IMG/VR virus record: IMGVR_UViG_3300049988_000245
Span: 64,001-128,000 of that record
Source of the DNA: a virus
Lineage: Duplodnaviria > Caudoviricetes
Direction: 5' to 3' (one strand)
Length of the DNA stretch: 64,000 nt
This document shows, piece after piece, positions 10,500 through 59,588 of the stretch; position 1 is the stretch's first letter; every line of letters starts with the position of its first letter. The notes under the pieces were generated by a model. The model saw nothing but the letters and a program-made list of their open reading frames with translations. It was not told the origin of the DNA and did no database searches. The position numbers and the translations under genes were made by a program.

Positions 10500-10760
10500 A
10501 TGAAGTGGGTCCAGACCGACTTGAAGCGGAACTCCGATCGGTGGGTTGCGCGGTTCAAGCTACCACTCCCGCACGGTCAGCGGGGGCTGGACTACACTTT
10601 TGCTTCTCTGTTTGCTCGCAGGTCACAAGCATGGTGTCTGGAGAATTTTGGCAAGCCCCATGCGAGCCATTCGACGAAGTATCGGTGGCACATGGACGGG
10701 TGGACGGCTCACTTCCGGCATGAGGACGATGCCTTCGCGTTCAAGATGCGGTGGTGCTGA
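10500..10760 (+). CDS. FxLRW-family small protein (paralogue)
   Basis: WCLENFG...FRHEDDAFAFKMRWC. Confidence 0.8.
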   Translation: MKWVQTDLKRNSDRWVARFKLPLPHGQRGLDYTFASLFARRSQAWCLENFGKPHASHSTKYRWHMDGWTAHFRHEDDAFAFKMRWC

Positions 10761-10794
10761 GGTGGTGTGGATCATTCGAGACGGAGGAACCAAG

Positions 10795-11094
10795 ATGGCT
10801 CGGTACTACCAGTACACCGACATCGTCGTCCCCGGCGTGCGCCGATTGATCGAGACCGACTTCACCGTGTTCCTGATGAAGGATTGCGATGACACCGTGA
10901 TGGGCGATCTCGAAGTGGTCGAGTGGGCCGCCACCCAAGGGGCACCAATCCACGTGGATAACCATTTCTGGAACCACCCGGTACGCCTCGGCAAGGACCA
11001 TAATCATGCGGCGATCGTCGATGCGTTCGACTCAGCCGTTCTCATGATCCGCGACCCCGATCTGGCCATGGCGTTCAAGCTGAAATTCTGTTGA
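10795..11094 (+). CDS. FxLRW-family small protein
   Basis: ...IRDPDLAMAFKLKFC. Confidence 0.75.
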   Translation: MARYYQYTDIVVPGVRRLIETDFTVFLMKDCDDTVMGDLEVVEWAATQGAPIHVDNHFWNHPVRLGKDHNHAAIVDAFDSAVLMIRDPDLAMAFKLKFC

Positions 11095-11161
11095 GCTTGA
11101 CGCGACCGGGCGATCCGTGTTCGAGAGTTTCGTCGGGCGCTAGTGCCCTGGGGAGCCAGTC

Positions 11162-11377
11162 ATGGTGATGGACAACGACCCGGACGAGAAGCTGATCGGG
11201 CATTTCACGTCGCGATCTTATCATTTGCATCTGTTGCGTGTGAGTACGGGGTACCGGATGGACTCGTTCGATAAGGATGATGTCTCTGGTACGATTTCGC
11301 AGGCACATTATTCCGATCTGCAAAACGCTCAGGTGGCATTCTGTATGAAGCTGCAAGAACTGCTCGCCACGGCTTAA
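11162..11377 (+). CDS. Hypothetical protein
   Basis: ORF track; co-oriented with neighbours. Confidence 0.55.
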   Translation: MVMDNDPDEKLIGHFTSRSYHLHLLRVSTGYRMDSFDKDDVSGTISQAHYSDLQNAQVAFCMKLQELLATA

Positions 11378-11545
11378 CCATTCTCACGAATTCGGCTTGC
11401 ATTCTTTTCGTTTTAAATCACATTGAGGAACCCGCCAGCTAACCACTGGCTAGTCGGATCACGCTGACCGACGAAGTGAAGCCGATTGGTCTCGGCAAAC
11501 TCAGGCGCCGGTCCCCGGAGGGGACGCGATGGTGGTAGCGAAAGG

Positions 11546-11950
11546 ATGGATAGCGTGGAGCCGAAAGCTAGGAAGCGCCCCGTCCCCACCAAGTATTTCA
11601 CTGAACTGGACGGTGGAATTCCGAAGCAATTCGTCCTCCCCATGACGATCAGGCAGAGGCGCCGAATCATGGGGGATTTTGCTGATTCTCAGAGCTTTAA
11701 TCAGCACTGTTGTGACCTCGAAGAGTGGGGCCGCGAGAACCAGATCGAGTTTCAGTTCGGTCTCCTCTACGACGTTCGTGAACGCTATTCTGCGGAGTAC
11801 GATCGCGTCATGACGGCGAACGATATTCCCGACCACGATCGAGAACGAATCCTCAAGGGCCTTCAGGACCGCGAGGAGTACCTGTTCAACGCGTTCTTCT
11901 TCGATAACCGTACCCACGCGTTCATGTTCAAGCTTCGCTGGTTCGGTTGA
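11546..11950 (+). CDS. FxLRW-family protein
   Basis: ...FFFDNRTHAFMFKLRWFG. Confidence 0.75.
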   Translation: MDSVEPKARKRPVPTKYFTELDGGIPKQFVLPMTIRQRRRIMGDFADSQSFNQHCCDLEEWGRENQIEFQFGLLYDVRERYSAEYDRVMTANDIPDHDRERILKGLQDREEYLFNAFFFDNRTHAFMFKLRWFG

Positions 11951-11986
11951 CATCCTACTGAATCCACGTATATTAGGGGAATCAGC
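11947..11986 (+). promoter_or_regulatory. Early promoter (conserved motif)
   Basis: TTGACA-N16-TATATT-aggggaATCAGC, followed by GGAG SD. Confidence 0.8.
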
Positions 11987-11997
11987 AGGAGAGATTC

Positions 11998-12264
11998 ATG
12001 GCCGCGCTCAAGATCGAGATCAACCCGGATATGGACTCGGTTCGGCGCCGCGCCGCGAAGTCGAACAACGACTGGCTGGTCTGGCGCAACCGCGACGGCG
12101 CCACCTGCGCGGCCCGCCGGTCGCTTCCCGCGATCAAGCAGGCGATGCTGGACTGCGGCACCGGCCGGAAGTTCACCATGTACTGTGCCCGGTCGGTCAT
12201 GCCGATGCTGATCGACTGGCGCCTCGGTCTGATCCTCCGGAACAACACCCGTCGCGGGTACTGA
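11998..12264 (+). CDS. Hypothetical early protein
   Basis: Strong SD, GC3-rich codon usage. Confidence 0.75.
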   Translation: MAALKIEINPDMDSVRRRAAKSNNDWLVWRNRDGATCAARRSLPAIKQAMLDCGTGRKFTMYCARSVMPMLIDWRLGLILRNNTRRGY

Positions 12265-12521
12265 TGAGCGAACGGACCTTCCTTCCGGCTGGGGAATCGT
12301 ACCTCACCAGCGTACTTTATCGGGCTCCCGTGGATATGGGCAGTCTGTCCCCGGATTGTAGTGCGATTATAGACTGGCTCGAAGAGGACGGCTTTGAAGG
12401 ATACTACTTCCTAGATAGTCACTCCTCGTACAATACGATTGGCAAACGCGTCTACGTAGATGTCAGCGTACTATTCAGTAACCCCGCTGCGGCATTCAAT
12501 TTCCGCATGAGATGGACTTGA
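12264..12521 (+). CDS. FxLRW-family small protein
   Basis: WLEEDG...LFSNPAAAFNFRMRWT. Confidence 0.75.
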   Translation: MSERTFLPAGESYLTSVLYRAPVDMGSLSPDCSAIIDWLEEDGFEGYYFLDSHSSYNTIGKRVYVDVSVLFSNPAAAFNFRMRWT

Positions 12522-12536
12522 AATCAGGAGATACCC

Positions 12537-13306: not shown

Positions 13307-15352
13307 ATGACGATCGAGCGCACCGACCTGATCCCCGGCGTAACCAAGGTTCGTCTGATCGGATACAGCGAATTTCAAAAGTCGCTGCTCACCTTCTGTG
13401 TTGAACCAGCTTCGTTGCGTTTCCGAAACGCGATACCGGCGATCGGTACGGTTGGGGTGGTCGGCGCGTCTTATAATCTGCGGGAAAACTCCATCCCTGT
13501 GCTGTTCGGTGAAGATACCCCGCTGGGCGACAACGAGGTGGACTGCGACCTCAATACGCTGGAAATCATCGAGAACCCGCCCCGGATGGAGCCGTTTCCG
13601 CTCGGTACCAAGGTGAAGCTGGTCAAGGCCGATCCCCGTCATCGGGGCGTGGGTTCGGCCATCCCCACGGTCGGCCTGATCGGCACGATCGATGCGCAGA
13701 CGGCCCCCGCATGGTGCCAGACCGTTCGGTTTAAGGCGACCGATCTCGGCTACGGCTCGCGTGATGATGACGACGATACGATCTGCCTGTACATCCTGCG
13801 CAACTGCCTGGAGCAGTACGTCCCGGTGGATGATGCGCTCCGACAGATCGTCGCCACCCTGAAAGAGGGACCGAAGGAATTCGATCCCGACACGTACCGG
13901 CCCAAGGTCGATCCCGACGCGCTGATCGACGCCCGTGGACATTGGATGAAGACCGAGCCGTTCCTGCGTAGCAGCATGGAGATGTGGTCGGGCAAACACT
14001 TTGACGACAATGTCAGCAGGTCGATGCTGTTCGAGAAAATCGATCTGGAAGAGCATGGCGCGGTCCGGGAGGAAACAAAGCAACTGTTCTTCCTCAGCAG
14101 CGAGTGCTTCGTCTGCCAGAGCAGGTTCGGCTACACCCCCTCGGAGGGTGGCAAGCGCTTCACCGCGTCCACCGAATGCCCGTATCCGGGCGGCATCCCC
14201 GATTACGATGTGCTGCTCGGCGTCCCCTCGGGGCGGATCGTGTTTGCGAACGACCTGCGTGCCCTGGTGGAGATCGAGGAGCCCCGTGGGACCAGCGTGA
14301 ATTCAATGATCGGCCAGCGCCGTAATACGGAGGCACACGCGGCGGCTGGACTGATCATGATCGCCACCGGCAACACCTGTCCGGGTATCTGGCGGCGGCC
14401 CGATGGGACGATCAGTATCGCCAACTTCCGGGGGAATGATCCGCAGGACGATGACGACCACGAGGTCGAGGGCGTGCACACCCCGGTGGAGGAGCGCGGC
14501 GAGGACTTGGGCAGCATCTGCACGGACCTGTGGGACTTCTGCGCGATGGACTACGGGTACTTCGTGAACCGCTGCGCCGCGCTCAACGAGGACCCGAAGG
14601 ATTTCGACATCACGATCGTCGATGTGAAGGCCGGGACCTGGGCGTTCACGGTCCCGAAGAGCACCGGTCGGGACACTGCGACGGAAATCTACTCCACTGG
14701 TCGCTGGACCGATCAGGCGGCGCCGGAGATTCGCCTCCCCGACACAACCCTGTCGGAGACCCTGGCGGAGAGCCAAGCCTGGAAGGGCCTGAAGGATATC
14801 TGGTCGAGCCCGATCTCCTCGAACGGCTACAAGGGCGTCGAATTCGTGCTGATCTGCTTCGGCACCGGCTACGACTGGACCGATGGGCTGCTCCGCACGG
14901 GCACTCGCCGGGAGGACGAGCCGTTCCGGAATCTCACCGACGCCATGCTGGAGCAGCCCCAGGCGGTGCACCCGCTGGACCAGCACGTGCCGGTGTGGCC
15001 GAACTTCGCCTATCCAATGGGGGAAGCCTTCCTCGGTCAGGAGCCGGGCATCTCGCCGATGTTCCCGCTTTCCATGGGCTACGCGAAGGTCTCGAAAATC
15101 CCGCAGAATGTCGATCCGTGGTGGCTCGCGCTCTCGGTCATGTACGTGAAGGCGATGAAGGATCGAACGGACCTATTCATGACCCGCCATGGCTACACGG
15201 CGGAGAAGCAGCAGGCCGGGATGAATCTGATCTATTCGATGCTGCTCGATCTGGTGGAGGTTCGTGGAGGGATCGACTGGATGCGCCCGTACTTCCGGGA
15301 GTGGCTGGCCGTGGATCAGGAACTTCTTCTGAAGAATCCGCCCCATGCGTGA
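13307..15352 (+). CDS. Large hypothetical protein (N-terminal repeated SH3-like segments)
   Basis: 681-aa ORF; two similar TKV.L....IP..G.VG segments. Confidence 0.8.
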   Translation: MTIERTDLIPGVTKVRLIGYSEFQKSLLTFCVEPASLRFRNAIPAIGTVGVVGASYNLRENSIPVLFGEDTPLGDNEVDCDLNTLEIIENPPRMEPFPLGTKVKLVKADPRHRGVGSAIPTVGLIGTIDAQTAPAWCQTVRFKATDLGYGSRDDDDDTICLYILRNCLEQYVPVDDALRQIVATLKEGPKEFDPDTYRPKVDPDALIDARGHWMKTEPFLRSSMEMWSGKHFDDNVSRSMLFEKIDLEEHGAVREETKQLFFLSSECFVCQSRFGYTPSEGGKRFTASTECPYPGGIPDYDVLLGVPSGRIVFANDLRALVEIEEPRGTSVNSMIGQRRNTEAHAAAGLIMIATGNTCPGIWRRPDGTISIANFRGNDPQDDDDHEVEGVHTPVEERGEDLGSICTDLWDFCAMDYGYFVNRCAALNEDPKDFDITIVDVKAGTWAFTVPKSTGRDTATEIYSTGRWTDQAAPEIRLPDTTLSETLAESQAWKGLKDIWSSPISSNGYKGVEFVLICFGTGYDWTDGLLRTGTRREDEPFRNLTDAMLEQPQAVHPLDQHVPVWPNFAYPMGEAFLGQEPGISPMFPLSMGYAKVSKIPQNVDPWWLALSVMYVKAMKDRTDLFMTRHGYTAEKQQAGMNLIYSMLLDLVEVRGGIDWMRPYFREWLAVDQELLLKNPPHA

Positions 15353-15587
15353 GCCTCGATACGACTTCATCCCTCTCAGTCGAGAGGGATACCACTACGA
15401 CCATAAGTTCGTGATTCGGGAAGACGGCGAATTCTTCAGGAGTAAGTACGACCCGATTCCAAGCGAGGTTGTTGCTTGGCTAGAAGAGCACGTCGGTACG
15501 TACGGCTACGACTACACGAATATCGACGGAGATGTTTGGATATCCGGATCGAAGAAAGCGTTCGAATTTCGTATGCGCTGGTGCTGA
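15345..15587 (+). CDS. FxLRW-family small protein
   Basis: WLEEHVG...SKKAFEFRMRWC. Confidence 0.8.
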   Translation: MREPRYDFIPLSREGYHYDHKFVIREDGEFFRSKYDPIPSEVVAWLEEHVGTYGYDYTNIDGDVWISGSKKAFEFRMRWC

Positions 15588-15602: not shown

Positions 15603-15851
15603 ATGAGCGAGAACGGAATCGGTATAAGGTCGGACCATTACGTTCGGACCTGGGGCCTTGGCTTTGGTTTCGGTGGCAAGACCGTTCGCTTGACCAACGA
15701 ACAGTTCTGGTTTGCCATGCTGGACGGAAGAATTCGGTACAGCCTGGGCGAGATTGCGCGGCGAACGGTGTGGAATATGACGGTGGAGCAGTACGAGAGC
15801 CAGCGCCATCCCGGCGCAGATGCCGCCTGCATCTCGTTCGACGACGCGTGA
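15603..15851 (+). CDS. Hypothetical protein
   Basis: ORF track; GAGG SD. Confidence 0.65.
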   Translation: MSENGIGIRSDHYVRTWGLGFGFGGKTVRLTNEQFWFAMLDGRIRYSLGEIARRTVWNMTVEQYESQRHPGADAACISFDDA

Positions 15852-16066
15852 GCGGCTGCAAGTATATCCCGGAGGGGAATGGCTATGGCGTTCGCTTTAT
15901 GCTTCCGGACAGGGATGACTGGAAAGTCGAAGCCCTACGGGAACTCACCAACTGGCTCACCGATGAATTCGGTGAGCCTCATATGATGCGATGGTATCAA
16001 ATGCAGTGGATCATCTATATCCCTGACCCGACCATCGCAATGGCGTTTCGGCTACGTTGGTGCTGA
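15848..16066 (+). CDS. FxLRW-family small protein
   Basis: WLTDEFG...IPDPTIAMAFRLRWC. Confidence 0.8.
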   Translation: MSGCKYIPEGNGYGVRFMLPDRDDWKVEALRELTNWLTDEFGEPHMMRWYQMQWIIYIPDPTIAMAFRLRWC

Positions 16067-16436: not shown

Positions 16437-18314
16437 TTAGATCGATACCTGTCTGCCCAATTCGACGGCACGCTCCGTGGGTATCCGGAAGTGCGCCGAG
16501 GCGTCGGCCTGAGCGGTGGACATCCGGACGAAGAGTGCGTCCTGCCACCAGGGCATCTTAGACGCGCTGGAAACCTTCAGGGTGCGCTTGGACAAGAAGA
16601 AGCTCGTCTTCATCACCTCGAACTTCCAGCCCGCCCTACGACACTGCTTGAGCGCCAGGGGAACGTTCGGGACTTCCATGAACCCGAACCGTAGGCGGAC
16701 CCGCAGGAAGCCGTCGTTCAGGGTCTCGATCCGAACGCGGTCTACTTCTTCCACGCGAGGTTCGTCCACCGTGTCTACGGCGAGAATCACGGTGTTCTGG
16801 TGGAGCACCCGGTTGTGCTTCAGGTTATGCAGGAGCGCCGGGGGCACCTCGTCCGGACGAGGCGTAAAGAACACTGCCGTCCCATCGACGCGATTCTTGA
16901 TTGATTTGGCCAGCGTCGGGATATAGTCGAGCAGGTCAAGAGCTTCCTTGCTCTGCTTGGTCGAGAGTAGTTCCGAACCCTTCCGCCACGTGATCATCGC
17001 GACCATCAGGAGAGCGCCGAACAGCACCGGGAGCCAGCCGCCGTCGAACACCTTCAGTGAGTTGGCCGACAGGAACACCATGTCGAGGGCCAGGAACGGC
17101 GTCATCAGCATGACAGCGAGCGGCATCGGGACCCGCCAGACCTTCCAGGCGACGAAGAACGCCAGCAGCGCGGTCATCACCATGGTCCCGGACACCGCGA
17201 TCCCGTATGCGGAGATCAGCGCCTCGGAGGACCGGAACGACAGCACCACCATGACGACTCCGGTGAGCAGCATCCAGTTGATCTGAGGAACGTAGATTTG
17301 CCCCCGCTCGGTCTCCGAGGTCGGTCGAATCACCATTCGGGGGAGCAGCTTCAACTGGATCGCCTGCTGGGTGAGCGAGAACGCCCCGGTGATCGCGGCC
17401 TGCGCGGCGATGATCGTCGCCAGCGTGGCGAGCAGCACCATCGGGATCAGCGCCCATTCCGGAAACATCAGGAAGAACGGATTCTCCGCATGCTCCGGGT
17501 GAGCCATCAGGAATGCGCCCTGGCCCAAATAATTCAGACCCAGACAGGGGAAGATGAAGCCGATCCACGCGACTTGAATCGGAGTCCGGCCGAAGTGACC
17601 CATGTCCGCGTATAGCGCCTCCGCTCCGGTAACTGCGAGGAACACCGAACCGAGCACCAGCATAGAGGCGAGGCCGTGGTGGAGTAGGAAGTCGAGCGCG
17701 TGGAGCGGGTTCAGGGCCGCCAGGATAGCCGTGTTCTCCCAGATGTAGGGAAGACCAACCAGGGCCATCAGACCGAACCACAGGGCCATCACGGGGCCAA
17801 AGAACGTGGCAACTCGCGCCGTACCCCGGCTCTGCACCACGAACAGGCTGATCAGGATGACCAGGGCGAGCGAAACCACGTAGGGTTTGAACGCGGAGGA
17901 GACCAGATTCAGCCCCTCGACCGCTGACAGAACCGAGACCGCCGGAGTCAGCACGGCGTCTCCATAGAACAGGGCGGCGCCGATCATCCCAAGTATCACG
18001 ACGTACTTGGCTCCGCCCATGGCCTTAAACGCCAGTGCGGTGAGTGCAAGAATCCCGCCCTCACGGTCATTGTCCGCCCACATAATGAGGCCGACATATT
18101 TCACCGTGACGGTCAGGAACAACGTCCAGAGGACCAGGGAGACCAGGGAGACGATCAGGTCGGGGGAATGTGCTCCGGCGCCGGAGGCGACCTTCAGGGT
18201 CTCCTTGAGCGCATACAAGGGGGAGGTGCCGATATCCCCATAGACGACACCGGTCGAGCCGAGAGCCAGTGTGAACAGGCCCGCCTTATGCGGGACCGTG
18301 GTGGTGGATGACAT
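16437..18314 (-). CDS. kup: KUP/HAK/KT family potassium uptake transporter
   Basis: GVVYGDIGTSPLY, GEGG-like REGGILAL, EALYADMGHFG, GQIYVPQINW, HNLKHNRVLH, FGFME; intact 625 aa. Confidence 0.97.
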   Translation of the reverse strand: MSSTTTVPHKAGLFTLALGSTGVVYGDIGTSPLYALKETLKVASGAGAHSPDLIVSLVSLVLWTLFLTVTVKYVGLIMWADNDREGGILALTALAFKAMGGAKYVVILGMIGAALFYGDAVLTPAVSVLSAVEGLNLVSSAFKPYVVSLALVILISLFVVQSRGTARVATFFGPVMALWFGLMALVGLPYIWENTAILAALNPLHALDFLLHHGLASMLVLGSVFLAVTGAEALYADMGHFGRTPIQVAWIGFIFPCLGLNYLGQGAFLMAHPEHAENPFFLMFPEWALIPMVLLATLATIIAAQAAITGAFSLTQQAIQLKLLPRMVIRPTSETERGQIYVPQINWMLLTGVVMVVLSFRSSEALISAYGIAVSGTMVMTALLAFFVAWKVWRVPMPLAVMLMTPFLALDMVFLSANSLKVFDGGWLPVLFGALLMVAMITWRKGSELLSTKQSKEALDLLDYIPTLAKSIKNRVDGTAVFFTPRPDEVPPALLHNLKHNRVLHQNTVILAVDTVDEPRVEEVDRVRIETLNDGFLRVRLRFGFMEVPNVPLALKQCRRAGWKFEVMKTSFFLSKRTLKVSSASKMPWWQDALFVRMSTAQADASAHFRIPTERAVELGRQVSI

Positions 18315-18378
18315 GTGGGTGATCCATTGGAGGAGGCGACGTTCTACACCTCTCTCATTGGTTCGACCAAATTGAATT

Positions 18379-18987
18379 TCAGGCAGATTCCTCCTCGGGC
18401 GGGGCAATTTTGTACCACCGCATTTTGAACTCCATCGCCTCGTTCGGGTCCTTAATCACCGCGACAACGTTCCGAAGCTGGTTCGACCATCCACCGGTCA
18501 CGACATGCGGACCTCGAATTCGTTCATTCACCCAGACTTCCATCTCCGTGTGTTGGTCCGAGGTCATAGTAGTCTCGATTCTGTAATTCTTGACCAGCGA
18601 CCTGAACCAATCTCGAACCTCTACAAGAGATCGTGGATCAGAGAATGCCAAACGCCATCCGTTAACATTGGACGACATGTCACCTTCGCGTTGCAGTAGA
18701 ACATTTCCATTCACACCATCGACGAATTTTCTGAATTCGGTGTAGTCCCAAAGTTTATTATTGATGTCCAAATCAGTTACTCGAAACTCTTCCCCGAAGG
18801 AGGCTCCGAAATACCACATCCGATAGTCATTGAACGGGTCTGGTAAGCCATGCGAGGGAATCTTCGCCACTCCCTGGAGCGTATTAGCAATTGGCTGAAA
18901 CTCCATGACTCGGGAGTTCATATTGGTGATCTGCGAGTATACCTCTGGGGTGAAGGACACGCGCGGAACCATTATAACGGTACTCAT
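18379..18987 (-). CDS. Tandem two-domain FxLRW-family protein
   Basis: LAFSDPRSL.. then WVNERIRG...IKDPNEAMEFKMRWY. Confidence 0.7.
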   Translation of the reverse strand: MSTVIMVPRVSFTPEVYSQITNMNSRVMEFQPIANTLQGVAKIPSHGLPDPFNDYRMWYFGASFGEEFRVTDLDINNKLWDYTEFRKFVDGVNGNVLLQREGDMSSNVNGWRLAFSDPRSLVEVRDWFRSLVKNYRIETTMTSDQHTEMEVWVNERIRGPHVVTGGWSNQLRNVVAVIKDPNEAMEFKMRWYKIAPPEEESA

Positions 18988-23596: not shown

Positions 23597-23854
23597 TTAA
23601 TGCTCACCCACCCAGCGCATCTTGAATTCGAATGTTTGTTCTGCATTGGGCATAGTAAACGTTCTGTGGTTGGAAACGTACCACCGAGTATCGTCATCGA
23701 TCGATGGCTCGCCAAACCTCTCCTGACACCACTCAGTGATCTCTTGAGTAAGTTTGTCGGCCTCGTTCACGTTCTGAAGACCGATTGGATCGACGAGGAA
23801 TAACCACCAACCGCTCAATGGGTCGAAACCACCCTCCTCGACGATGACTTTCAT
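23597..23854 (-). CDS. FxLRW-family small protein
   Basis: WCQERFG...NAEQTFEFKMRWVG. Confidence 0.8.
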   Translation of the reverse strand: MKVIVEEGGFDPLSGWWLFLVDPIGLQNVNEADKLTQEITEWCQERFGEPSIDDDTRWYVSNHRTFTMPNAEQTFEFKMRWVGEH

Positions 23855-24703: not shown

Positions 24704-24967
24704 CTATCCGAAACAAAGTTTGAACGCGACCGCGTCTACCTCACGATAAAACAAGAGATCGACGGAATCTGAGAACTTAGGAGTGTACTTGTATAAAATG
24801 TTGTTTTCGTCCAGCCAAGCCTTAGCTTGGTCGCTGAGGCACGTCTGGACGTGATGACCGAGGACGCTTTTGGCGTTCCGAAGCGCACGATGATCCGAGG
24901 CGCCGTTTATGAACACCTTGACCAGACGAACACTCCCGTCCGGATTAAGAATCGGTGTGAGAATCAT
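24704..24967 (-). CDS. FxLRW-family small protein
   Basis: WLDENN...LFYREVDAVAFKLCFG. Confidence 0.75.
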   Translation of the reverse strand: MILTPILNPDGSVRLVKVFINGASDHRALRNAKSVLGHHVQTCLSDQAKAWLDENNILYKYTPKFSDSVDLLFYREVDAVAFKLCFG

Positions 24968-25239
24968 GATTCGGGGTCCGCAGGATAAACCTGCCAGTGC
25001 GTGCCGATGACGTAGTCCTTGTAGGGATTCGCCGTAACAGTCTTGAAGCCACCGAGGTAGTCGTAATTCTCCGACTCGTAGTCAACGGTAAGTTCGGATT
25101 CCCACACGCAGACGTGCCAGGATTTCTCCGGACTATGGTTGTTCAGGCTCTCCCATCCGGCGGTCCCGTAGACGAGGAGCTTGCGACCATCCCGTGGAGT
25201 GTTCTGGTCGATCGGGTAGGTGACGCCGGGGACAAACAT
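24964..25239 (-). CDS. Hypothetical protein (DUF551-like end)
   Basis: TPRDGRKLL...GTHWQ. Confidence 0.65.
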   Translation of the reverse strand: MFVPGVTYPIDQNTPRDGRKLLVYGTAGWESLNNHSPEKSWHVCVWESELTVDYESENYDYLGGFKTVTANPYKDYVIGTHWQVYPADPES

Positions 25240-26831: not shown

Positions 26832-27147
26832 TAAAATCGTCGGACGATTCCTCGCGTCCGACAACATGCCGGAGCTTGTCCCAAATCTCCTCGGTGAGGA
26901 CCATCGTCGTGCCATCGACGCGGTCGTAGAGTTCCGGGGCGATCTCGCAGAAAATCTCGACGAGAGGATTCCCGCGCATCCGGTCGATGGGGAGAAATCG
27001 ATTCTTCACCGCCCGGAACAGCATCTCGCCGGGATCGCGCTTGATTATCACGTGCGCGCGGAACGATATCGTCGTGCGAATCCGGTCTGCGCCGACGATT
27101 TGTCGGCCCTGACGATTCGGGATCAGCGCGATGATCTGAGGGGGCAT
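26773..27147 (-). CDS. Hypothetical protein
   Basis: ORF track; ATG at 27147. Confidence 0.55.
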   Translation of the reverse strand: MPPQIIALIPNRQGRQIVGADRIRTTISFRAHVIIKRDPGEMLFRAVKNRFLPIDRMRGNPLVEIFCEIAPELYDRVDGTTMVLTEEIWDKLRHVVGREESSDDFIRSQQSARAGAPLKLTYPY

Positions 27148-27170
27148 GAATCCATGGTCCAAACATGGGT

Positions 27171-27490: not shown

Positions 27491-27499
27491 ACAGTGGGG

Positions 27500-27530
27500 T
27501 ATTTATAGCTGAGCGTCGGTGGAGTGTCAA
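27500..27530 (-). promoter_or_regulatory. Composite sigma70 and late promoter of tmRNA
   Basis: TTGACA-N17-TATAAA, where the -10 is also the exact TATAAATA late motif. Confidence 0.8.
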
Positions 27531-27563
27531 GAATGGTGGAGGCGGCGATATAATAAATAATAG

Positions 27564-31393: not shown

Positions 31394-31763
31394 CGTAATC
31401 TCCGTCAGCGATACCTGACACTTCCATACGGGCGCGCCATCCTTCATCGAGCGGGCGCGCATCCGTATGAAGTCGGGCTTCCAGTGCATCGTTGTCCGAA
31501 TACACATGCAATACGATTGTATCATAAACCGTATACTTGGTATACCAGCTATCCGGTTTCGTATCGACAACGAATCGAATGAATTCCCAATGATATGGAA
31601 TCTCGCGGTGATCGAGATAGTTCACAAGGCGGTCTGATTCCTCCGCGTGATACCAGTAGGTAGCTCGGAGAGATCGAATCAGACATCCGTCATGGATGTG
31701 GCCGGGCGGGAACGGGTTGAAGTCGGTTCCAAATTCGTGCCAGAAAATCATGAAGCTACGCAC
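31386..31763 (-). CDS. Hypothetical protein, divergent FxLRW-family member
   Basis: VYSDNDALEARLH; heads the tandem array. Confidence 0.6.
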   Translation of the reverse strand: MRSFMIFWHEFGTDFNPFPPGHIHDGCLIRSLRATYWYHAEESDRLVNYLDHREIPYHWEFIRFVVDTKPDSWYTKYTVYDTIVLHVYSDNDALEARLHTDARPLDEGWRARMEVSGIADGDYVN

Positions 31764-32040
31764 GGCAGGTCGCTCCCCAGGTGAGTCGAAATTCGAAAGC
31801 CTGCTCAGGCGTTACGCTGGCGATCAATTCCTTGCGGCTTTCCCAATTCGGAACAGGCTCGGTCAGAACGATTCCCCGCGCTACACACCAATCCACGATG
31901 GGTTGGCCCAGGCGTTCAAAATCCTCGCGTGGCTGAACGAAAAAGTCGATCACCCAACCCTCGTCCTGCCAATCCCACTGGTTTCCGTCCCAGGACCATC
32001 CGTGGTCGAACCAGTGGACGCCCGCCTTAAGTCCATTCAT
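31756..32040 (-). CDS. FxLRW-family small protein
   Basis: WCVARG...TPEQAFEFRLTWG. Confidence 0.75.
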   Translation of the reverse strand: MNGLKAGVHWFDHGWSWDGNQWDWQDEGWVIDFFVQPREDFERLGQPIVDWCVARGIVLTEPVPNWESRKELIASVTPEQAFEFRLTWGATCRA

Positions 32041-32332
32041 CGTCGGTGACGACCGCTCCATGCCATCTGAGCTTAAACGCGACCGCCGTGGCGTAGTCTT
32101 GAAAGACGATCGCCGGAACGGAGGCCGAAGTCTTGACCGGGCAGAGCCGGTATCGATCCTGCGCGTGTTCGTCCAGCCAGCGCGCCACAGGGTTGATCGG
32201 GGAGGTCGTCGTGCAGAACGGGTATACGAGCGGGCTATCCTCGGAGAAGATCGCGCTGACCGTCCCTGCATCTCGCATCGTCCAGGGCACGCGGGGATCA
32301 CCGCCCGGATGCTCGACCAATTTGAAGCTCAT
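32027..32332 (-). CDS. FxLRW-family small protein
   Basis: WLDEH...FQDYATAVAFKLRWH. Confidence 0.8.
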   Translation of the reverse strand: MSFKLVEHPGGDPRVPWTMRDAGTVSAIFSEDSPLVYPFCTTTSPINPVARWLDEHAQDRYRLCPVKTSASVPAIVFQDYATAVAFKLRWHGAVVTDDEWT

Positions 32333-32568
32333 TGCCAGCGCATCCGGTAGGCGAACGCATCTGCGGGATCGGCGAATAGAAACACGAACAGGCCCGCCGG
32401 ATCGTAATGAGGAGCGAAGTCGCCCTTACAGAACTCTTTGCACCAATCCGACTGAGCGGAGATGAACGCAAGAATTTCACCTTCCTCACGCATTTCGATG
32501 ATCATCCGCGTTAGGTTGAGGTGTCCGTCATTCTCTTCGAGGAGCATTTCGTTGGCGTTCCGTCGCAT
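32329..32568 (-). CDS. FxLRW-family small protein
   Basis: WCKEFC...FADPADAFAYRMRWQ. Confidence 0.8.
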   Translation of the reverse strand: MRRNANEMLLEENDGHLNLTRMIIEMREEGEILAFISAQSDWCKEFCKGDFAPHYDPAGLFVFLFADPADAFAYRMRWQ

Positions 32569-32825
32569 TAGCACCATCTCATCTTAAACGCGAACGCATC
32601 GTCTTCGTAACGGAACAGGAATCCCGAGCCCTGTCGGACCCACCGGCCATTGAACCAATCGTCATGAGGGATCGGGAAATTCTCGACGCACCATGCGGCA
32701 ACCACATCGACCTGTCTCGTTCGATCCTTGATCTTTGCCAAAGATTCCTGTGAACCTCGCAGGACCATAATGAATCGATACGGGTAGATCGAGCCGTCAT
32801 TCCGATCGACTTGCCGCCAGCGCAT
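32568..32825 (-). CDS. FxLRW-family small protein
   Basis: YPY.F..WCVENF...FRYEDDAFAFKMRWC. Confidence 0.8.
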   Translation of the reverse strand: MRWRQVDRNDGSIYPYRFIMVLRGSQESLAKIKDRTRQVDVVAAWCVENFPIPHDDWFNGRWVRQGSGFLFRYEDDAFAFKMRWC

Positions 32826-32986
32826 CATCCCCACCGCATCTTGAATTCGAACGCCGTGTCCGGGTCGGAGAATGTCACACCAACGCGCCCAATGGGGAAC
32901 GTGAATCGGCCCGGCCTGGATGGTTCTTGCAGCCATTTCGTCAGATCGGGCGCGTGAGCATCGTCGAACGCTTTGCTCTTCGACAT
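32825..32986 (-). CDS. FxLRW-family small protein not in ORF track (possibly frameshifted near 33013)
   Basis: Manual translation MSKSKAFDDAHAPDLTKWLQEPSRPGRFTFPIGRVGVTFSDPDTAFEFKMRWG*. Confidence 0.7.
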   Translation of the reverse strand: MSKSKAFDDAHAPDLTKWLQEPSRPGRFTFPIGRVGVTFSDPDTAFEFKMRWG

Positions 32987-33037
32987 ATCCACGAAGATCA
33001 CGCACTCGACGAGGTGGGTACTTCTCCCAGGTTGCCA

Positions 33038-33334
33038 TCAGCCCCATCGCATCTTGAATTCGAACGCGTCCTGCTCGAACCGGAATTTGAACGAGGTCCC
33101 CTCGGAGGTCCAGCGCCATAGGTTGAGCGCACGGGCCGCCAGACGGTCATCGGTGCCGAACTGGAGACGACACCACTCGCTGGTCTCGTAGGCCGCTCTA
33201 CGGCGATCCTTGATGGTCTGGCGACGGAGGGCGATCTGCGCGGGCAGTGCGGCGAGCGCGGAGGTGTCGAGCGCGAACACGTACGGATAGCGCTCCTGTC
33301 CGACATTCGGTGGTGGGCTCATCTGCCAGCGCAT
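33038..33334 (-). CDS. FxLRW-family small protein
   Basis: YPYVF..WCRLQFG...FRFEQDAFEFKMRWG. Confidence 0.8.
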   Translation of the reverse strand: MRWQMSPPPNVGQERYPYVFALDTSALAALPAQIALRRQTIKDRRRAAYETSEWCRLQFGTDDRLAARALNLWRWTSEGTSFKFRFEQDAFEFKMRWG

Positions 33335-33594
33335 TACCCGAACCTCATCTGAAGAGCAAAGGCGTCTTCGATACGCGCGAACAGGATGGTCGAACCATGA
33401 ACGGCCCAAACAGTATTCGTCTCCGGCCCGTACTGTTCACGGCACCACTCGATCATGTCGTCTCGAAACTTGGCGCGGTCTTCCCATCCGGGAGACGCCG
33501 CCGTTCCGAAATGAGAACCCGGCGGTAGCCATATCCCATGCTGGAGTTCGGCGCCTAAACCTTCGTAGCTGAGATATTCCAGCCGGGCAGTCAT
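33334..33594 (-). CDS. FxLRW-family small protein
   Basis: WCREQYG...FARIEDAFALQMRFG. Confidence 0.8.
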   Translation of the reverse strand: MTARLEYLSYEGLGAELQHGIWLPPGSHFGTAASPGWEDRAKFRDDMIEWCREQYGPETNTVWAVHGSTILFARIEDAFALQMRFG

Positions 33595-33833
33595 CAGCAC
33601 CACCTCAGTTTGAACGCCGTGGCATCCGATTCCAGCCGGAAAAGGAATTCGCGCTGAGTCACCGTATAGGTCCAGCGATTTGGAATGGACCCGTCAAACT
33701 GTTCACCGCACCACGAAATCACTTTGGTGAACCGCCTGATATCGAGATCATGCCGATCGCGTTGATCCCGGAGCACGAACACGTACGGAAACGTGTAGTC
33801 CTGTTGATCCAGAATGAAGCGAAGCTCGTCCAT
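33594..33833 (-). CDS. FxLRW-family small protein
   Basis: WCGEQF...FRLESDATAFKLRWC. Confidence 0.8.
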   Translation of the reverse strand: MDELRFILDQQDYTFPYVFVLRDQRDRHDLDIRRFTKVISWCGEQFDGSIPNRWTYTVTQREFLFRLESDATAFKLRWC

Positions 33834-41370: not shown

Positions 41371-41662
41371 ACTCTTCCCCGTTCGGATCGCGACGACGAC
41401 CACTCAGCGGGTGGCGATGCCATCCCTCAGGCTCACCCTTGCCATCCCAGGCTTCGAGAGCCGCACGGGCCGCATCCTCGTCGTGATAGCACCAACGATC
41501 TGAATAGGTATTGCGGTCGCCCATCTCGCCCACAATGATTGCCCAGGTGAACATCAGCCGGAGCAAGCCGGTCCAGCGTCCATCGCCGATCGGGCGCGGG
41601 TCGATGTAGCCGCCATCGGTTTTCAAGTAGTGGAGGAAAGAGAGTTCTTCGAGTCGAGTCAT
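41357..41662 (-). CDS. Conserved hypothetical protein
   Basis: DRWCY..AA..AL..WDG.GEP.GWHRHP.SGRRR motif. Confidence 0.75.
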   Translation of the reverse strand: MTRLEELSFLHYLKTDGGYIDPRPIGDGRWTGLLRLMFTWAIIVGEMGDRNTYSDRWCYHDEDAARAALEAWDGKGEPEGWHRHPLSGRRRDPNGEESIRY

Positions 41663-41958
41663 AGCATGATCCTGAATAGGAGAGCGGCGTCCGGATCGGA
41701 GAAATACGCGACGCAGCGCTCGACCGTCGCCCATTTCTCCTCTTGCCCTTCATTGAGGTGCGTCGTCCAGCGCCGGATATGGACGCGGCCCACGTCACGC
41801 TCTCTGATGAATTCCCGAGGATAGCGAACCAGGGCGGCAGAGCCGGAGAGCGTCCGGATCATCCGCTGGAAATCCTGCTTGGTCAGCGGCACGAGCAATT
41901 CCACCGGGGTGTACCCGGCGTAGTACTCCGCGTTGTTCCATTTAATAAAGGTCGCCAT
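41659..41958 (-). CDS. FxLRW-family protein (divergent)
   Basis: ...YFSDPDAALLFRIML. Confidence 0.7.
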   Translation of the reverse strand: MATFIKWNNAEYYAGYTPVELLVPLTKQDFQRMIRTLSGSAALVRYPREFIRERDVGRVHIRRWTTHLNEGQEEKWATVERCVAYFSDPDAALLFRIML

Positions 41959-41988
41959 ACCCGGAATATACCCGGATATGGCGAAAAA

Positions 41989-47510: not shown

Positions 47511-47960
47511 TCAGCCCTCGATCTCGCCAACCTCGTAGTGATTCCCCACCTTACCACCATATTTGATTCGGAAGTGAAATGCATCGTTCGGATTCCCGAA
47601 AAAGAACACGTTGGTTAACGGGAGAACCTTGCCGTACTCGATTGGCATCTGGGATCGGAACAGGCTCACCCGCATGTGCCAGAGCGAAGATACGTTCTCG
47701 ATGATCCACTCGTGCATCTCGCGATCGTACGGATGCGCGTACAGCGTCACCATATGGGGGAACGTTTCTTCCACCCAGGCCCAATACTGCTTGTTATTGG
47801 ACGTGTTGAGTTCGTCCTTGGCGTGAACCCGTTTTGTTTCCGGGTCCATCACCGCCAGCGGATGGATATGGCCCTGGATGATGTAGAGACGGCGCAATAA
47901 CTTACGTCGTAAAATTCTTGTTATTCGAAATAATCTTGCTAGTAGCACGTTTACCCCCAT
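47511..47960 (-). CDS. FxLRW-family protein
   Basis: WIIENV...FFFGNPNDAFHFRIKYG; start uncertain. Confidence 0.65.
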   Translation of the reverse strand: MGVNVLLARLFRITRILRRKLLRRLYIIQGHIHPLAVMDPETKRVHAKDELNTSNNKQYWAWVEETFPHMVTLYAHPYDREMHEWIIENVSSLWHMRVSLFRSQMPIEYGKVLPLTNVFFFGNPNDAFHFRIKYGGKVGNHYEVGEIEG

Positions 47961-48160
47961 GACATTTTGAATTCCAGGGCTGTCGTATCGTTTTTGATCA
48001 AGACATTTCCACAAAGTGTAAGTTCCCAATCAAGAAATTCTATTCCTACGTGCTCTTTCAACCACGAGCGAATATTATATCGATCAATCTCAGATTCTGA
48101 AGTGAACATGTGTGGTAAGTCAACGTTGTGATTTGCAATTTTGTGATATCGAAACCTCAT
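47951..48160 (-). CDS. FxLRW-family small protein
   Basis: WLKEHVG...KNDTTALEFKMSWG. Confidence 0.8.
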   Translation of the reverse strand: MRFRYHKIANHNVDLPHMFTSESEIDRYNIRSWLKEHVGIEFLDWELTLCGNVLIKNDTTALEFKMSWG

Positions 48161-48414
48161 CCCCACCTCACGCGAAACGCCGTGGCATCGACATCTGTCG
48201 AGATGTCGATGGTCGTCATGTCGGCGCGCCAGCGGGGTACGACCGGCTTCACCCCGTAGGCGTAGTCGGGCGGGCCGAACTGCTCGCGGCACCAATGGAT
48301 CGCCTCGATCATGTTGGCGTTCGTGGTGAAATAGGTTGGGGAAACAATCATCTCGAAACCGAACGGGTATTTGGTTCCCTTCAGCCGATAAAGCGGTTTG
48401 AACTTGATCTCCAT
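48157..48414 (-). CDS. FxLRW-family small protein
   Basis: WCREQFG...STDVDATAFRVRWG. Confidence 0.8.
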   Translation of the reverse strand: MEIKFKPLYRLKGTKYPFGFEMIVSPTYFTTNANMIEAIHWCREQFGPPDYAYGVKPVVPRWRADMTTIDISTDVDATAFRVRWG

Positions 48415-48662
48415 CAGCACCACCGCATTTTGAAGGCGAGCGCATCGGGCTCATTTTGGAATACAATATGGAATCCGTTGCACCGGAACGCTTCGCTTTG
48501 GTATCCGATTTGATCCATGCACCAGCGTAAGGCGAGGTCGCGCGTCTCGTAGTAGCTATCTCCGTCGAAGACATGCTGTTTTAGAGAGAACTGATACGGG
48601 TAGGTTAGTTTCCGCCCTTTCCGGTCCTCGAATACAGTCGGCTCTTGAAACCAGTCCACCAT
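48414..48662 (-). CDS. FxLRW-family small protein
   Basis: YPYQF..WCMDQIG...FQNEPDALAFKMRWC. Confidence 0.8.
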   Translation of the reverse strand: MVDWFQEPTVFEDRKGRKLTYPYQFSLKQHVFDGDSYYETRDLALRWCMDQIGYQSEAFRCNGFHIVFQNEPDALAFKMRWC

Positions 48663-48928
48663 CAGCAGTACCTCAACTTGAATTCGAGCGCCTGTGGGAG
48701 GTCTCGCATATAAATGGTTCCACGGTGTCCGACGCGCCAATCCTTTCCGTGCGGGCCGACGTTCTCGACCAGCCATTCGGCGATGAAATCGGGTGTGTAA
48801 TCGGCACCGGCCCCAATATCAGGATTGGTGGTTTCAACGCAGCCCGTTCCGAACACCAGCCGATGATGGCGTGGTTGGAACATGTGCTCGTTCGCGTTCA
48901 CCACGTGATGGTATGAGATTCTGGTCAT
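48662..48928 (-). CDS. FxLRW-family small protein
   Basis: WLVENVG...MRDLPQALEFKLRYC. Confidence 0.8.
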   Translation of the reverse strand: MTRISYHHVVNANEHMFQPRHHRLVFGTGCVETTNPDIGAGADYTPDFIAEWLVENVGPHGKDWRVGHRGTIYMRDLPQALEFKLRYC

Positions 48929-57351: not shown

Positions 57352-57357
57352 ACGAAT

Positions 57358-57387
57358 ATGGCCCCGGTGAGTAATCACCGGGGCCAT
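57358..57387 (+). terminator. Perfect 13-bp hairpin
   Basis: ATGGCCCCGGTGA-GTAA-TCACCGGGGCCAT. Confidence 0.75.
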
Positions 57388-57453
57388 AATGTTTAATAAA
57401 TATACACACATAACTGAATATATTATCAGTATATAACCATACAAAGGAATACT

Positions 57454-58284
57454 ATGAGCGTTATTCTGAGAGGAAGATTCTCTTCCAATCTAAATGTCAG
57501 AATTAGACTTAAGAATGTTCTTCCAAAGATAGTAACAGGTATTAGCTCATCTCTGATCACGTCAAGCTCTTTTACGTTGTCGTTTGTTCGAGAATTAGGA
57601 GTTACGTATCAGTACACTTTCAATAATGGCGCTACATGGCTTAATCTACCTTTGGACGGTTCAATAACAGGATTGATTAGTCAGACTTCGTATTCAGTTC
57701 GAGTTCGGGGTGTTAACCGGTATGGTGTCGGCCTAATTTCTGCTGCGACTGTTGTGACGACGCTTTCGGCGTTTGCCTCGTTTGACCCAGCTAGGCTTGG
57801 GTCGGGAGTGACACTCAGCAACAGTAACACTACGGTGACCATGCCGGGCAGTTGGAAGAGTGCTTTGTGCACTCGGCCTAAGTTCCCAGGAACAGGGCGA
57901 TACTATCTGGAATTTCAAGGCGGAACTAATGTGAGAATTGGTATCGTTGATGGCTCTGTAAATCTTGAGACTGAAATTCTTTCTCAGGGATACCCATGTA
58001 TCTATCCATATGGTGGTATTTTATACAATAAGGGCAGCAACCAAGAGACTTCAACGGAGGGAAGTATTATTGCAAATCCGCCTCAAGTTTACGGAATGCT
58101 ATGGGATAGTTATTCAAGAAAAATAACATTCACTAGAGATGGTAGAATTCTTTTCGTGCATAGCACTTCTGACCAAATTTCTGGATCGCCGATTTATGCC
58201 GCTGTCTCGGCAATCAGTGATTCAATAACCTTGAATTTTGGTCCTACGTTTAAATACCTTCCGTCCGGGTATACAGCTTGGTAG
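57454..58284 (+). CDS. FN3 + SPRY/B30.2-like domain protein
   Basis: Y.VRVRG.N..G.G (FN3); G.YYLEF..RIGI..G....YG (SPRY); markedly AT-rich. Confidence 0.7.
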   Translation: MSVILRGRFSSNLNVRIRLKNVLPKIVTGISSSLITSSSFTLSFVRELGVTYQYTFNNGATWLNLPLDGSITGLISQTSYSVRVRGVNRYGVGLISAATVVTTLSAFASFDPARLGSGVTLSNSNTTVTMPGSWKSALCTRPKFPGTGRYYLEFQGGTNVRIGIVDGSVNLETEILSQGYPCIYPYGGILYNKGSNQETSTEGSIIANPPQVYGMLWDSYSRKITFTRDGRILFVHSTSDQISGSPIYAAVSAISDSITLNFGPTFKYLPSGYTAW

Positions 58285-58316
58285 CGTTTGATTTTTGGCT
58301 ATGATATGAATCGAAG

Positions 58317-58340
58317 ACCCCTGATGAGATTATCAGGGGT
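58317..58340 (+). terminator. Terminator
   Basis: ACCCCTGAT-GAGATT-ATCAGGGGT then TTT. Confidence 0.7.
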
Positions 58341-58365
58341 TTTCAGCTTGTGGTGAGTTAATCTA

Positions 58366-59289
58366 GTGAGAATCTACGCTCTCCTAATACTAACTCTGGT
58401 CCCAATAAATGCTAATGCGCGTGGGTTCAATGATTCCCGGCGAACCTCAGAAGAGGCCATGCGTACGGGAATCCCACAGAGTGTCGAGTCGGTACCGACC
58501 GTACCCGGACTTGACGTGTTCGGTACCACCGCGCCGACCGATCCTGGCGATCCCGGTGACCTCACGATCACGAACACCAACGACGGACGCATGGGCAAGA
58601 GTGGAGGAATCTTCCGCTCGGTCCAATCGAAGACCCAGCTTGGATACACGTTCGCACCAGATGCATGGATCGCGGTCGCGGCGTTTGATACCGGGACGCG
58701 CCTGCGAGGACTTCCAGACATCGGCCCGGACAAGGATCGGTTCAACTTCGACGGCGGTACCCTGGAATTTCAGTACCGGGTCCTGCATCGCTCCGAAACC
58801 AATCCGTTCGCCATCGCACTCGATGTGGAGCCCGCGTGGAATCGAATGGACCCCTACTCGGGTCGGACCGAAAGCACGTTCTCGGTCACCCCTAAGATTT
58901 TCATCGACGCCGTGGTGATCCCACACGTGCTCTTCTGGGGGCTGAACCTCTCCTACACCCCGCAGGCCGAACGTGTCGCGGGTCGTTATGTTCGAAGCTC
59001 GGGTACGCTGACCTCTACCGCCCTGGTCGTCCAGATTAATTCGGACGTGTTTTTGGGTGCCGAAGCGCGATATTTCGACGGGTTTTCATCTCTCTCGATC
59101 TCGCGAATCTCCGATCAGGCCCTGTTCGTCGGCCCGACCGTGGTATGGCAGGTGAACGAGAAGCTTGCCGTCAACGCGGCGTTCTCCCCGCAGGTGTTCG
59201 GTCGCGCCAAAGGACAGCAGACGGGCAAGCTCGACACTCAAGCGTTCGAACGTCAAAACTTCCGGCTCAACATCAATTATCAGTTTTAG
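58366..59289 (+). CDS. Outer-membrane beta-barrel protein of rhizobial type
   Basis: Sec signal, amphipathic beta-strands, C-terminal NINYQF BAM signal. Confidence 0.75.
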   Translation: MRIYALLILTLVPINANARGFNDSRRTSEEAMRTGIPQSVESVPTVPGLDVFGTTAPTDPGDPGDLTITNTNDGRMGKSGGIFRSVQSKTQLGYTFAPDAWIAVAAFDTGTRLRGLPDIGPDKDRFNFDGGTLEFQYRVLHRSETNPFAIALDVEPAWNRMDPYSGRTESTFSVTPKIFIDAVVIPHVLFWGLNLSYTPQAERVAGRYVRSSGTLTSTALVVQINSDVFLGAEARYFDGFSSLSISRISDQALFVGPTVVWQVNEKLAVNAAFSPQVFGRAKGQQTGKLDTQAFERQNFRLNINYQF

Positions 59290-59588
59290 AGCCAGCGCAT
59301 CTTGAACGCGAACAGATATTCGGGCTTGCTGAATCCGATTGGCCAAAGGTCGCCATAGTTCTCGTAGATCGCCCATTCCGGATCGAGTTCGTCGCACCAC
59401 GCCGCCATCTCATTAGTAAAGCCGCGAGTATAGTTATAGTCGATCCGACAATCTTCCGGGTACTTGACCCGGAAGTCATACAGGAATTGATTGCAATAGG
59501 CCGCATACATGGCACAGGCGTAATGCTCGTTCCGATCCAGACCTTCCATGCAATAGTATACGTCAGGGGAAAGACGTTTGAGCCTCAT
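59286..59588 (-). CDS. FxLRW-family small protein
   Basis: WCDELD...FSKPEYLFAFKMRWL. Confidence 0.75.
   Translation of the reverse strand: MRLKRLSPDVYYCMEGLDRNEHYACAMYAAYCNQFLYDFRVKYPEDCRIDYNYTRGFTNEMAAWCDELDPEWAIYENYGDLWPIGFSKPEYLFAFKMRWL

Follow-up and report, generated by a model that had tools for sequence, protein, structure and literature searches.

A previously undescribed family of small proteins carried in many copies by an uncultured T4-like jumbo phage

Few features of huge phages are as poorly understood as their multigene expansions. The one considered here was found in a 64,000-nucleotide stretch of viral DNA (hereafter the window, bases 64001–128000 of the 265,895-bp IMG/VR record IMGVR_UViG_3300049988_000245), in which genes for small proteins ending in a common tail of the type DAFxFKMRW occur singly and in tandem arrays. 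Small, fast-evolving accessory proteins are familiar from T4 and its relatives, where the internal proteins IPI–III and the products of the hyperplastic regions of T4-like phages vary from one close relative to the next and are believed to act against host defences. The proteins described here are likewise small, fast-evolving accessory products of a T4-type phage, one of them fused to a capsid-protein segment; unlike the T4 internal proteins, they have no common N-terminal capsid-targeting peptide, their structural conservation is C-terminal, and they are roughly ten times as numerous. A further precedent is found in the giant eukaryotic viruses, in which host-derived ankyrin, MORN, F-box and BTB domains have expanded into families with constant scaffolds and variable surfaces that are thought to bind host proteins. 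The phage family shares the constant scaffold with variable surfaces in many copies, whereas its domain has no cellular counterpart except in one low-GC Methylobacterium region with six copies.

The largest phage expansion in the literature searched is that of Bacillus phage G, whose ~35 lineage-specific zinc-ribbon copies were called 'unprecedented' (Iyer et al. 2021, PMC7824862). The two cases are alike in that one small domain recurs in tens of copies per jumbo phage, with a function that is conjectural (PMC7824862). The present family is two to three times larger, with ~90 copies in about half a genome, and is clade-wide instead of belonging to one phage; moreover, its fold is different and lacks paired CxxC motifs, having one semi-conserved Cys in helix 1 (52%) and an optional C-terminal Cys. 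A literature search found no account of the family, and neither Iyer et al. 2021 (PMC7824862) nor the papers on Agrobacterium phage Atu_ph07 and Sinorhizobium phage AP-J-162 mention it. It takes up about a tenth of the phage's known DNA and, without a Pfam or PHROGs entry, extends across 380–610-kb phages of plant-associated bacteria.

The record is linear, 57% complete by CheckV and 56% GC. Genes for tail fibres, a baseplate spike, virion structural proteins, ribonucleotide reductase, a gyrase B-like protein and a Kup transporter identify a tailed jumbo phage, and the source is an uncultured T4-like jumbo phage associated with Methylobacterium-type hosts, whose DNA turned up again in the leaf and silage metagenomes of 13 studies. 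Coordinates below are window positions unless marked G000, which denotes whole-record coordinates outside the window.

Members in the window and across the record

The members are real genes that are being maintained, and they belong to a single family of small proteins not described before. The evidence for maintenance comes from a 60.8-kb Logan contig, L013, which is syntenic with window positions 44000–19000 at ~83% nucleotide identity. Nine orthologue pairs between the two are 52–82% identical, with ratios of nonsynonymous to synonymous substitution (dN/dS) of 0.01–0.24, while large flanking genes are 85–95% identical, and dN of the family orthologues lies above that of the large neighbouring genes. 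Because identity is lower than in the flanks while dN/dS stays within this range, the copies are read as maintained genes that evolve fast under purifying selection. Conservation is greatest at the C-terminal end, the last 15 residues of the orthologues being 86% identical and the rest 68%.

A six-frame motif scan of the window recovered 18 open reading frames (ORFs) ending in [FY][KR][LMV]RW, mostly with one more residue before the stop, and hidden Markov models (HMMs) iterated from the window gave 19 strong members. An HMM iterated over the whole record picked out exactly 24 ORFs of the window, every one of which has the tail; 20 reach E <= 3.5e-8 and 4 score more weakly. A first-pass annotation, made from the letters of the window, had counted about 24 members with an FxLRW-type end, and this number stands for the window; the family itself proved about four times the size first noticed, as the whole record yields 83 ORFs with a cutoff of E<1e-4 and 92 with one of E<1e-2, nearly all with the motif 0–3 residues from the stop. 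Exactly one residue follows the W in 67 of 82 members, mostly G (26) or C (18). That annotation was also right about a central W(C)xExxG motif (W in 95%, C in 52%, E in 52% and G in 86% of 83 members), about tandem arrays with overlapping codons (eight genes at 31756–33833 and five at 47511–48928, both on the minus strand, with TGATG or ATGA junctions) and about similar 3' DNA ends, GCGTTCGAATTCAAGATGCG being present exactly at 32835–32854 and 33048–33067. Its two-domain member of ~200 aa found no support, in that no window ORF has two domain matches. Two ORFs of about this length, 32568–33119 (183 aa) and 47951–48574 (207 aa), were set aside as apparent over-calls that cross a neighbouring member in another frame; by its L013 orthologue, the former truly begins at MRWRQ and encodes 85 aa (32568–32825).

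Across the record, the genes form arrays of 9, 8, 5, 4, 4, 3, 3 and 3 members, plus 10 pairs and 24 singletons; their domains alone account for 7.5% of the DNA, and their longest ORFs for 10.8%. The window members, with the direct repeat found in array 1, are as follows; orthologues are those in L013.

10416..10760, plus strand: family member, 114 aa, tail DAFAFKMRWC; HMM E 6.5e-15
10762..11094 (ORF 10525–11094), plus strand: weak member, ~110 aa, tail LAMAFKLKFC; HMM E 3.3e-3; start inferred from the junction, just past the previous stop
11486..11950 (ORF 11480–11950), plus strand: member by its tail HAFMFKLRWFG, atypical N-terminal part, start uncertain; record HMM E 0.035 (the window-HMM value of 7e-15 is circular, as the ORF was a seed)
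12264..12521, plus strand: family member, 85 aa, AAFNFRMRWT; HMM E 8.7e-11
15345..15587, plus strand: family member, 80 aa, KAFEFRMRWC, the second to be folded; HMM E 2.9e-14; AlphaFold2 (AF2) predicted local distance difference test (pLDDT) 86.4
15770..16066, plus strand: family member, ~98 aa, IAMAFRLRWC; HMM E 2.1e-15
18379..18987, minus strand: long member, 202 aa, N-terminal ~130 aa without a match, then the domain and an 11-aa tail past RW; HMM E 1.1e-13; no Pfam or PADLOC match
23597..23854, minus strand: family member, 85 aa, QTFEFKMRWVGEH; HMM E 7.4e-18; orthologue 69% identical, dN/dS 0.09
24704..24967 (ORF 24704–25081), minus strand: weak member, 87 aa, DAVAFKLCFG; HMM E 0.016
31756..32040, minus strand: array 1 gene w7, 94 aa, QAFEFRLTWGATCRA; HMM E 3.5e-8; orthologue 81% identical, dN/dS 0.11
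32027..32332, minus strand: array 1 gene w6, 101 aa, AVAFKLRWH plus 10 aa; HMM E 6.2e-13; orthologue 82% identical
32329..32568, minus strand: array 1 gene w5, 79 aa, DAFAYRMRWQ; HMM E 6.9e-11; orthologue 62% identical
32568..32825, minus strand: array 1 gene w4, 85 aa, start MRWRQ; HMM E 5.1e-18; orthologue r4 aligned to 32825–32571, 52% identical
32825..33037, minus strand: array 1 gene wX, ~53–58 aa, a 213-bp unit; HMM E 4.4e-13; missing from L013 as well as from a natural strain ~96% identical to the window
32835..32854, minus strand: 20-nt direct repeat, copy 1, at the 3' end of wX, coding for AFEFKMR; exact match, with the indel joint inside
33048..33067, minus strand: 20-nt direct repeat, copy 2, at the 3' end of w3; exact match
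33038..33334, minus strand: array 1 gene w3, 98 aa, DAFEFKMRWG; HMM E 3.1e-19; orthologue 78% identical, dN/dS 0.24
33334..33603, minus strand: array 1 gene w2, ~83–89 aa, DAFALQMRFG; HMM E 3.9e-17; orthologue 59% identical
33594..33833, minus strand: array 1 gene w1, 79 aa, DATAFKLRWC, the first to be folded; HMM E 1.5e-17; AF2 pLDDT 85.3; orthologue 75% identical
41659..41958 (ORF 41659–41988), minus strand: weak member, 99 aa, DAALLFRIML, without the final W; HMM E 2.5e-4; orthologue also matches the HMM (2.4e-4), 75% identical, dN/dS 0.12
47511..47960, minus strand: array 2 gene 5, ~149 aa, DAFHFRIKYG plus 14 aa; HMM E 1.8e-12; start inferred from the junction
47951..48160, minus strand: array 2 gene 4, ~69 aa, ALEFKMSWG; HMM E 2.4e-11; ATGA junction, the 207-aa ORF probably being an over-call
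48157..48417, minus strand: array 2 gene 3, ~86 aa, ATAFRVRWG; HMM E 1.2e-16
48414..48665, minus strand: array 2 gene 2, ~83 aa from the TGATG junction or 120 aa with the upstream ATG; HMM E 4.1e-19
48662..48928, minus strand: array 2 gene 1, 88 aa, QALEFKLRYC; HMM E 2.8e-12
59286..59588, minus strand: family member, 100 aa, YLFAFKMRWL; HMM E 1.4e-12

Predicted fold and distribution

The domain is predicted to be a two-layer alpha/beta unit of ~65–80 aa, composed of a strand, a long helix leading to WCxExxG, a hairpin carrying a W and FxF, and a last helix with DAFxFKMRW; it almost always ends one residue past the W. Two members were modelled with AF2. The first (33594–33833, 79 aa) was folded with an alignment, designated A1, of the 83 C-terminal domains of the record's paralogues (pLDDT 85.3, predicted template modelling score 0.71) and consists of strand, long helix, strand, strand and helix. 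The second (15345–15587) was folded with A3, an alignment of 131 homologues from a library-wide search that was used instead of A1 (pLDDT 86.4, predicted template modelling score 0.74), and has the same core with an extra N-terminal strand. By DSSP, both models follow the strand–helix–strand–strand–helix order of the ferredoxin-like fold class, in which two helices lie on one face of an antiparallel sheet and a closing strand may follow; this membership denotes fold class only and not homology.

Conserved columns (W41, C or hydrophobic at 42, E44, F46, G48, W54, I63, F65, A71, F72, F74, K75, M76, R77 and W78) map to those sides of the hairpin and the two helices that are hydrophobic, together with a few polar residues; outside the hydrophobic core the conserved positions are G48, E44, K75 and R77. 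In all other columns the commonest residue reaches just 10–25% across the 83 members. The first-pass proposal of a constant scaffold with a variable surface thus gains support, as conservation is confined to the core and one fold recurs in two members modelled from independent alignments, so that the lack of a common fold, named by the annotation as refuting it, was not observed; the N-termini are as divergent as it had described, the N-terminal columns of A1 being unconserved with a top residue of 10–30%. Net charge ranges from -16 to +6, and a transmembrane-like segment occurs in 4 of 83 members. These members lie outside the window at G000 135020–136154 (plus strand) and 34146–34664 (minus strand), and three of the four are consecutive in one array, which suggests a membrane-anchored subgroup. 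A two-copy homodimer prediction with A1 scored 0.24 against a mark of 0.42, a value with no bearing on binding either way. No covariation of the helix-1 Cys with the C-terminal Cys, of the kind a metal site or disulfide would produce, was detected: the helix-1 Cys is present in 9 of the 18 members that have a Cys at the C-terminus and in 21 of the 64 that do not.

Comparison with known families and structures was largely negative. None of the 83 members matches a Pfam family at E<=0.01, PHROGs v4 offers no match under E 0.06 for the eight members searched, six members searched against PADLOC-DB gave zero matches, and a profile search of PDB sequences gave nothing under E 0.49. The N-terminal halves of long members lack a Pfam domain in 9 of 10 examined. 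Foldseek found no relative of either model among PDB structures and Swiss-Prot models. With VIA-align, the first model reached its best Z of 6.5, a background level, with designed ferredoxins (6nuk, 6wmk), and the best solved matches of the second were of the ACT type: VC0802 (1zvp, Z 5.0), the aspartate kinase regulatory domain (Z 4.5) and CASTOR1 (Z 4.2). T4 Arn appeared in the fold search at Z 4.6, again at background level only. The ferredoxin/ACT-like alignments (Z 5.0–6.5, root-mean-square deviation 2.3–3.3 A over 57–73 residues) reflect a common order of elements and two helices packed on one face of a 3–4-stranded sheet; they lack any sequence relationship, and the domain described here stops after its second helix, without the classic final strand. 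Convincing structural neighbours came only from uncharacterised proteins of uncultured tailed phages in BFVD, the AFDB clusters and the ESM Atlas, those from the Atlas belonging to the same viral clusters.

Searches beyond the record showed how widely the family extends among phages. When 1.84 billion cluster representatives were searched exhaustively with the profile, 3,723 matched at E <= 0.001, mostly of 65–110 aa and with few two-domain proteins. Related IMG/VR contigs were located by a back-translated tail pattern and then counted by profile over the whole records, giving 57 matches for a fragment of 75 kb, 20 for one of 38 kb, 16 for one of 31 kb and 17 for one of 54.5 kb; a complete phage of 607,744 bp has 53. 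A full T4-type gp23 capsid protein is encoded by two of five family-carrying IMG/VR records. Protein searches with the C-terminal domain of a long member and with A1 recovered almost only self matches, an effect of the word index used, A1 adding the orthologue P0111; none of 50,697 phage records was matched when single members were compared with them by tblastn. The profile search later revealed the family in a cultured phage, Sinorhizobium phage Phosso (469 kb), whose 44 matches have clear tails and carry only hypothetical-protein annotations, and gave three degenerate matches in Atu_ph07; Salicola phage SCTP-2, Brevundimonas phage Kabachok and Caulobacter phage CcrColossus have none. A clade of 380–610-kb phages has the family as its hallmark, and the 44 copies in Phosso make the function of such families open to direct experiment.

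Judged by the genomes searched, the family also appears essentially phage-restricted. Among ~185,000 species genomes, the exact tail pattern occurs at 63 loci, of which two are genuine, both in Methylobacterium carpenticola. Contig_1 of M. carpenticola ID0610 carries six copies within 65 kb (215.9–222.0 kb and 280.3–288 kb), where GC falls below that of the flank. The region has no T4-type capsid gene and no other protein in common with the phage, the surroundings of the copies comprising only an IS630-type transposase fragment and proteins without a match. A DISARM operon, DrmC-DrmB-DrmA (DrmA 2.3e-92, DrmB 6.8e-18, DrmC 2.2e-10), lies next to one of the copies in convergent orientation, an adjacency that is a single case and may serve as a lead only.

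Age of the copies and exchange at the 3' tail

The expansion of the family is ancient, the median best identity between paralogues being 36%. The nearest paralogue lies within 1.5 kb for only 10 of 83 members, where chance alone would give 2.5. A natural gain or loss of a single gene was captured in array 1, which has seven genes in L013 and eight in the window. The extra gene, wX, is the 213-bp unit at 32825–33037; it is flanked by the same ~30-nt tail sequence, and the DNA past its stop matches the gene3–gene4 junction of L013. A 1,064-bp silage contig from another study, ~96% identical to the window, joins 32834 to 33048 and thereby skips the 213 bases, 20 letters fitting either side; contigs of three other runs retain wX. 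That the breakpoints fall inside the 20-nt repeat in both L013 and the natural strain indicates that the conserved 3' end is a site of gain or loss of whole genes, which supplies a concrete mechanism for turnover of the repertoire. With no close paralogue of wX in the record, the difference may reflect a gain here or a loss elsewhere. The first-pass suggestion that the family expands by recombination at 3' anchors therefore stands in part: single genes do come and go at these sites, as the 213-bp indel attests, whereas the old paralogues speak against the anchors as the engine of an ongoing expansion.

Shared runs of 20–26 nt link copies of the tail that lie over 100 kb from each other, and synonymous-codon identity is 0.51 for adjacent and 0.48 for distant tails, which likewise gives no support to ongoing expansion through the anchors. 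Gene conversion among adjacent tails was tested and rejected on these figures. The 20-mer GCGTTCGAATTCAAGATGCG is accounted for by peptide conservation and codon bias. The motif Arg is encoded by AGG or AGA in 37% of members, compared with 12% for Arg elsewhere in the domain, and ATG-AGG-TGG holds the hexamer GAGGTG 7–8 nt ahead of the next start (e.g. window 33594–33620 and 48157–48185). An AGR codon is found in 24 of 46 coupled genes and in 1 of 10 uncoupled ones (Fisher p 0.03). The tail may therefore double as the ribosome-binding site of the next gene. Scans for sigma-70-type promoters and terminators around array 1 gave results at chance level.

Possible functions and genomic surroundings

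The reading favoured here, held tentatively and falling a little short of probable, is that the copies constitute a repertoire of small cytoplasmic protein-binding modules, each directed at a different host or defence protein in the service of takeover or counter-defence. It is preferred because only the core is fixed, because surface, loops, N-termini, charge and membrane anchors vary, and because each copy is under purifying selection. The constant hydrophobic core would act as the scaffold, leaving surface, loops and N-terminal extensions free to vary; each copy would be aimed at a distinct host or defence protein; and the copies, single or in translationally coupled arrays throughout the phage, are gained and lost as whole genes by recombination between conserved 3' ends. 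This scheme can be extended to a cassette-style counter-defence library of ~90–150 copies per phage, each binding a different defence or takeover target, in which the tail combines helix core, ribosome-binding site and homology for swaps between co-infecting phages. Such a library is possible but unlikely; if true, it would give huge phages a modular, exchangeable repertoire.

Several observations weigh against a repertoire of binders. No gene-wide positive selection, as the first-pass annotation had thought worth looking for, was seen in the nine orthologue pairs, and there are no recent duplicates among the 83 paralogues of the record, a combination more in keeping with a stable repertoire than with an arms race. 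Structural comparison yielded generic ferredoxin/ACT-like matches only (Z <= 6.5), and no RNA data sets are listed among those carrying the array stretch. The binding role itself, although plausible, is drawn by analogy with other diversified small viral proteins.

Other functions can be set against the same evidence. The proteins might be virion-associated or injected, delivered from the capsid with the DNA as are the T4 internal proteins, and here a member outside the window (G000 175996–176454, plus strand; L007:10496–10954) is suggestive: the first ~50 of its 153 aa match the conserved N-arm of Gp23, the T4-type major capsid protein (PF07068 4–46, E 3.5e-12), and are followed by a normal FKVRWM domain. 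This Gp23 segment presumably overlaps the T4 Gol region, which is sensed by the Lit abortive-infection protease. In addition, the nearest ESM Atlas cluster with any Pfam family has Gp23 in 13% of its members. The fusion is, however, one among ~90 members, and the unconserved N-termini hold no common targeting peptide of the kind that, with a prohead-protease cleavage site, marks T4-type internal proteins. Two members in Atu_ph07, gp255 and gp258, are also missing from the table of virion proteins identified in that phage by mass spectrometry (PMC6102473, supplementary Table S5), although the method readily overlooks proteins of this size and both copies are degenerate. Packaging with the DNA is thus quite unlikely.

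Much the same can be said of small KH-, dsRBD- (double-stranded RNA-binding domain) or ACT-like regulators that would bind nucleic acids through K and R of the last helix. Positions K75 and R77 are basic in 95% and 92% of members, and at low Z the models look like small alpha/beta modules that bind nucleic acids; with 37 acidic, 37 neutral and only 9 basic members, a median isoelectric point of 5.7 and no match to Pfam RNA- or DNA-binding families, this role is very unlikely. That the tail is kept mainly at the DNA or RNA level, as ribosome-binding site and recombination anchor of largely dispensable filler proteins, would account for the AGG/AGA bias that creates GAGGTG, for its enrichment in coupled genes and for indel breakpoints within the tail. 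It sits poorly with whole-gene dN/dS of 0.01–0.24, with a tail that is no less conserved in singletons or in distant homologues rich in AT, and with the buried side that the tail gives to the last helix of either model, all of which make it most improbable. Least probable among these alternatives are ACT-like sensor or regulatory modules for small ligands: the best solved matches of the second model are indeed of the ACT type (Z 5.0, 4.5 and 4.2), but these values fall under the tool's own common-background level, none of the 83 members matches an ACT family in Pfam, and the conserved residues form the core and no ligand site.

Around the family genes, the window holds several features of separate interest. 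A full-length Kup-type K+ transporter (16437–18407, minus strand; PF02705, E 2.4e-172) is an unusual auxiliary gene for a phage to encode. A permuted transfer-messenger RNA is called by ARAGORN at 27133–27526 (minus strand), with the tag VNDNVAMEVRLAA, and the octamer TATAAATA, which resembles a T4-type late promoter, marks its upstream edge at 27500–27507 (minus strand). This is one of only two occurrences of TATAAATA in the window, where the octamer shows no association with the family arrays. Adjoining array 1 is a ~4.1-kb segment of low GC (50–52%; 27266–31405), with ~0.85 kb only at the same place in L013; it encodes proteins of 738 and 229 aa on the opposite strand and has no Pfam or PADLOC match. 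Also adjoining array 1 is the gene for a 607-aa protein (35323–37146, minus strand) that is 53–59% identical to proteins of phiCbK-like Caulobacter and Brevundimonas phages, which lack the small-protein family, and only 28–34% identical to its counterparts in Phosso, Atu_ph07 and SCTP-2, a pattern of relationships that suggests a mosaic tail module.

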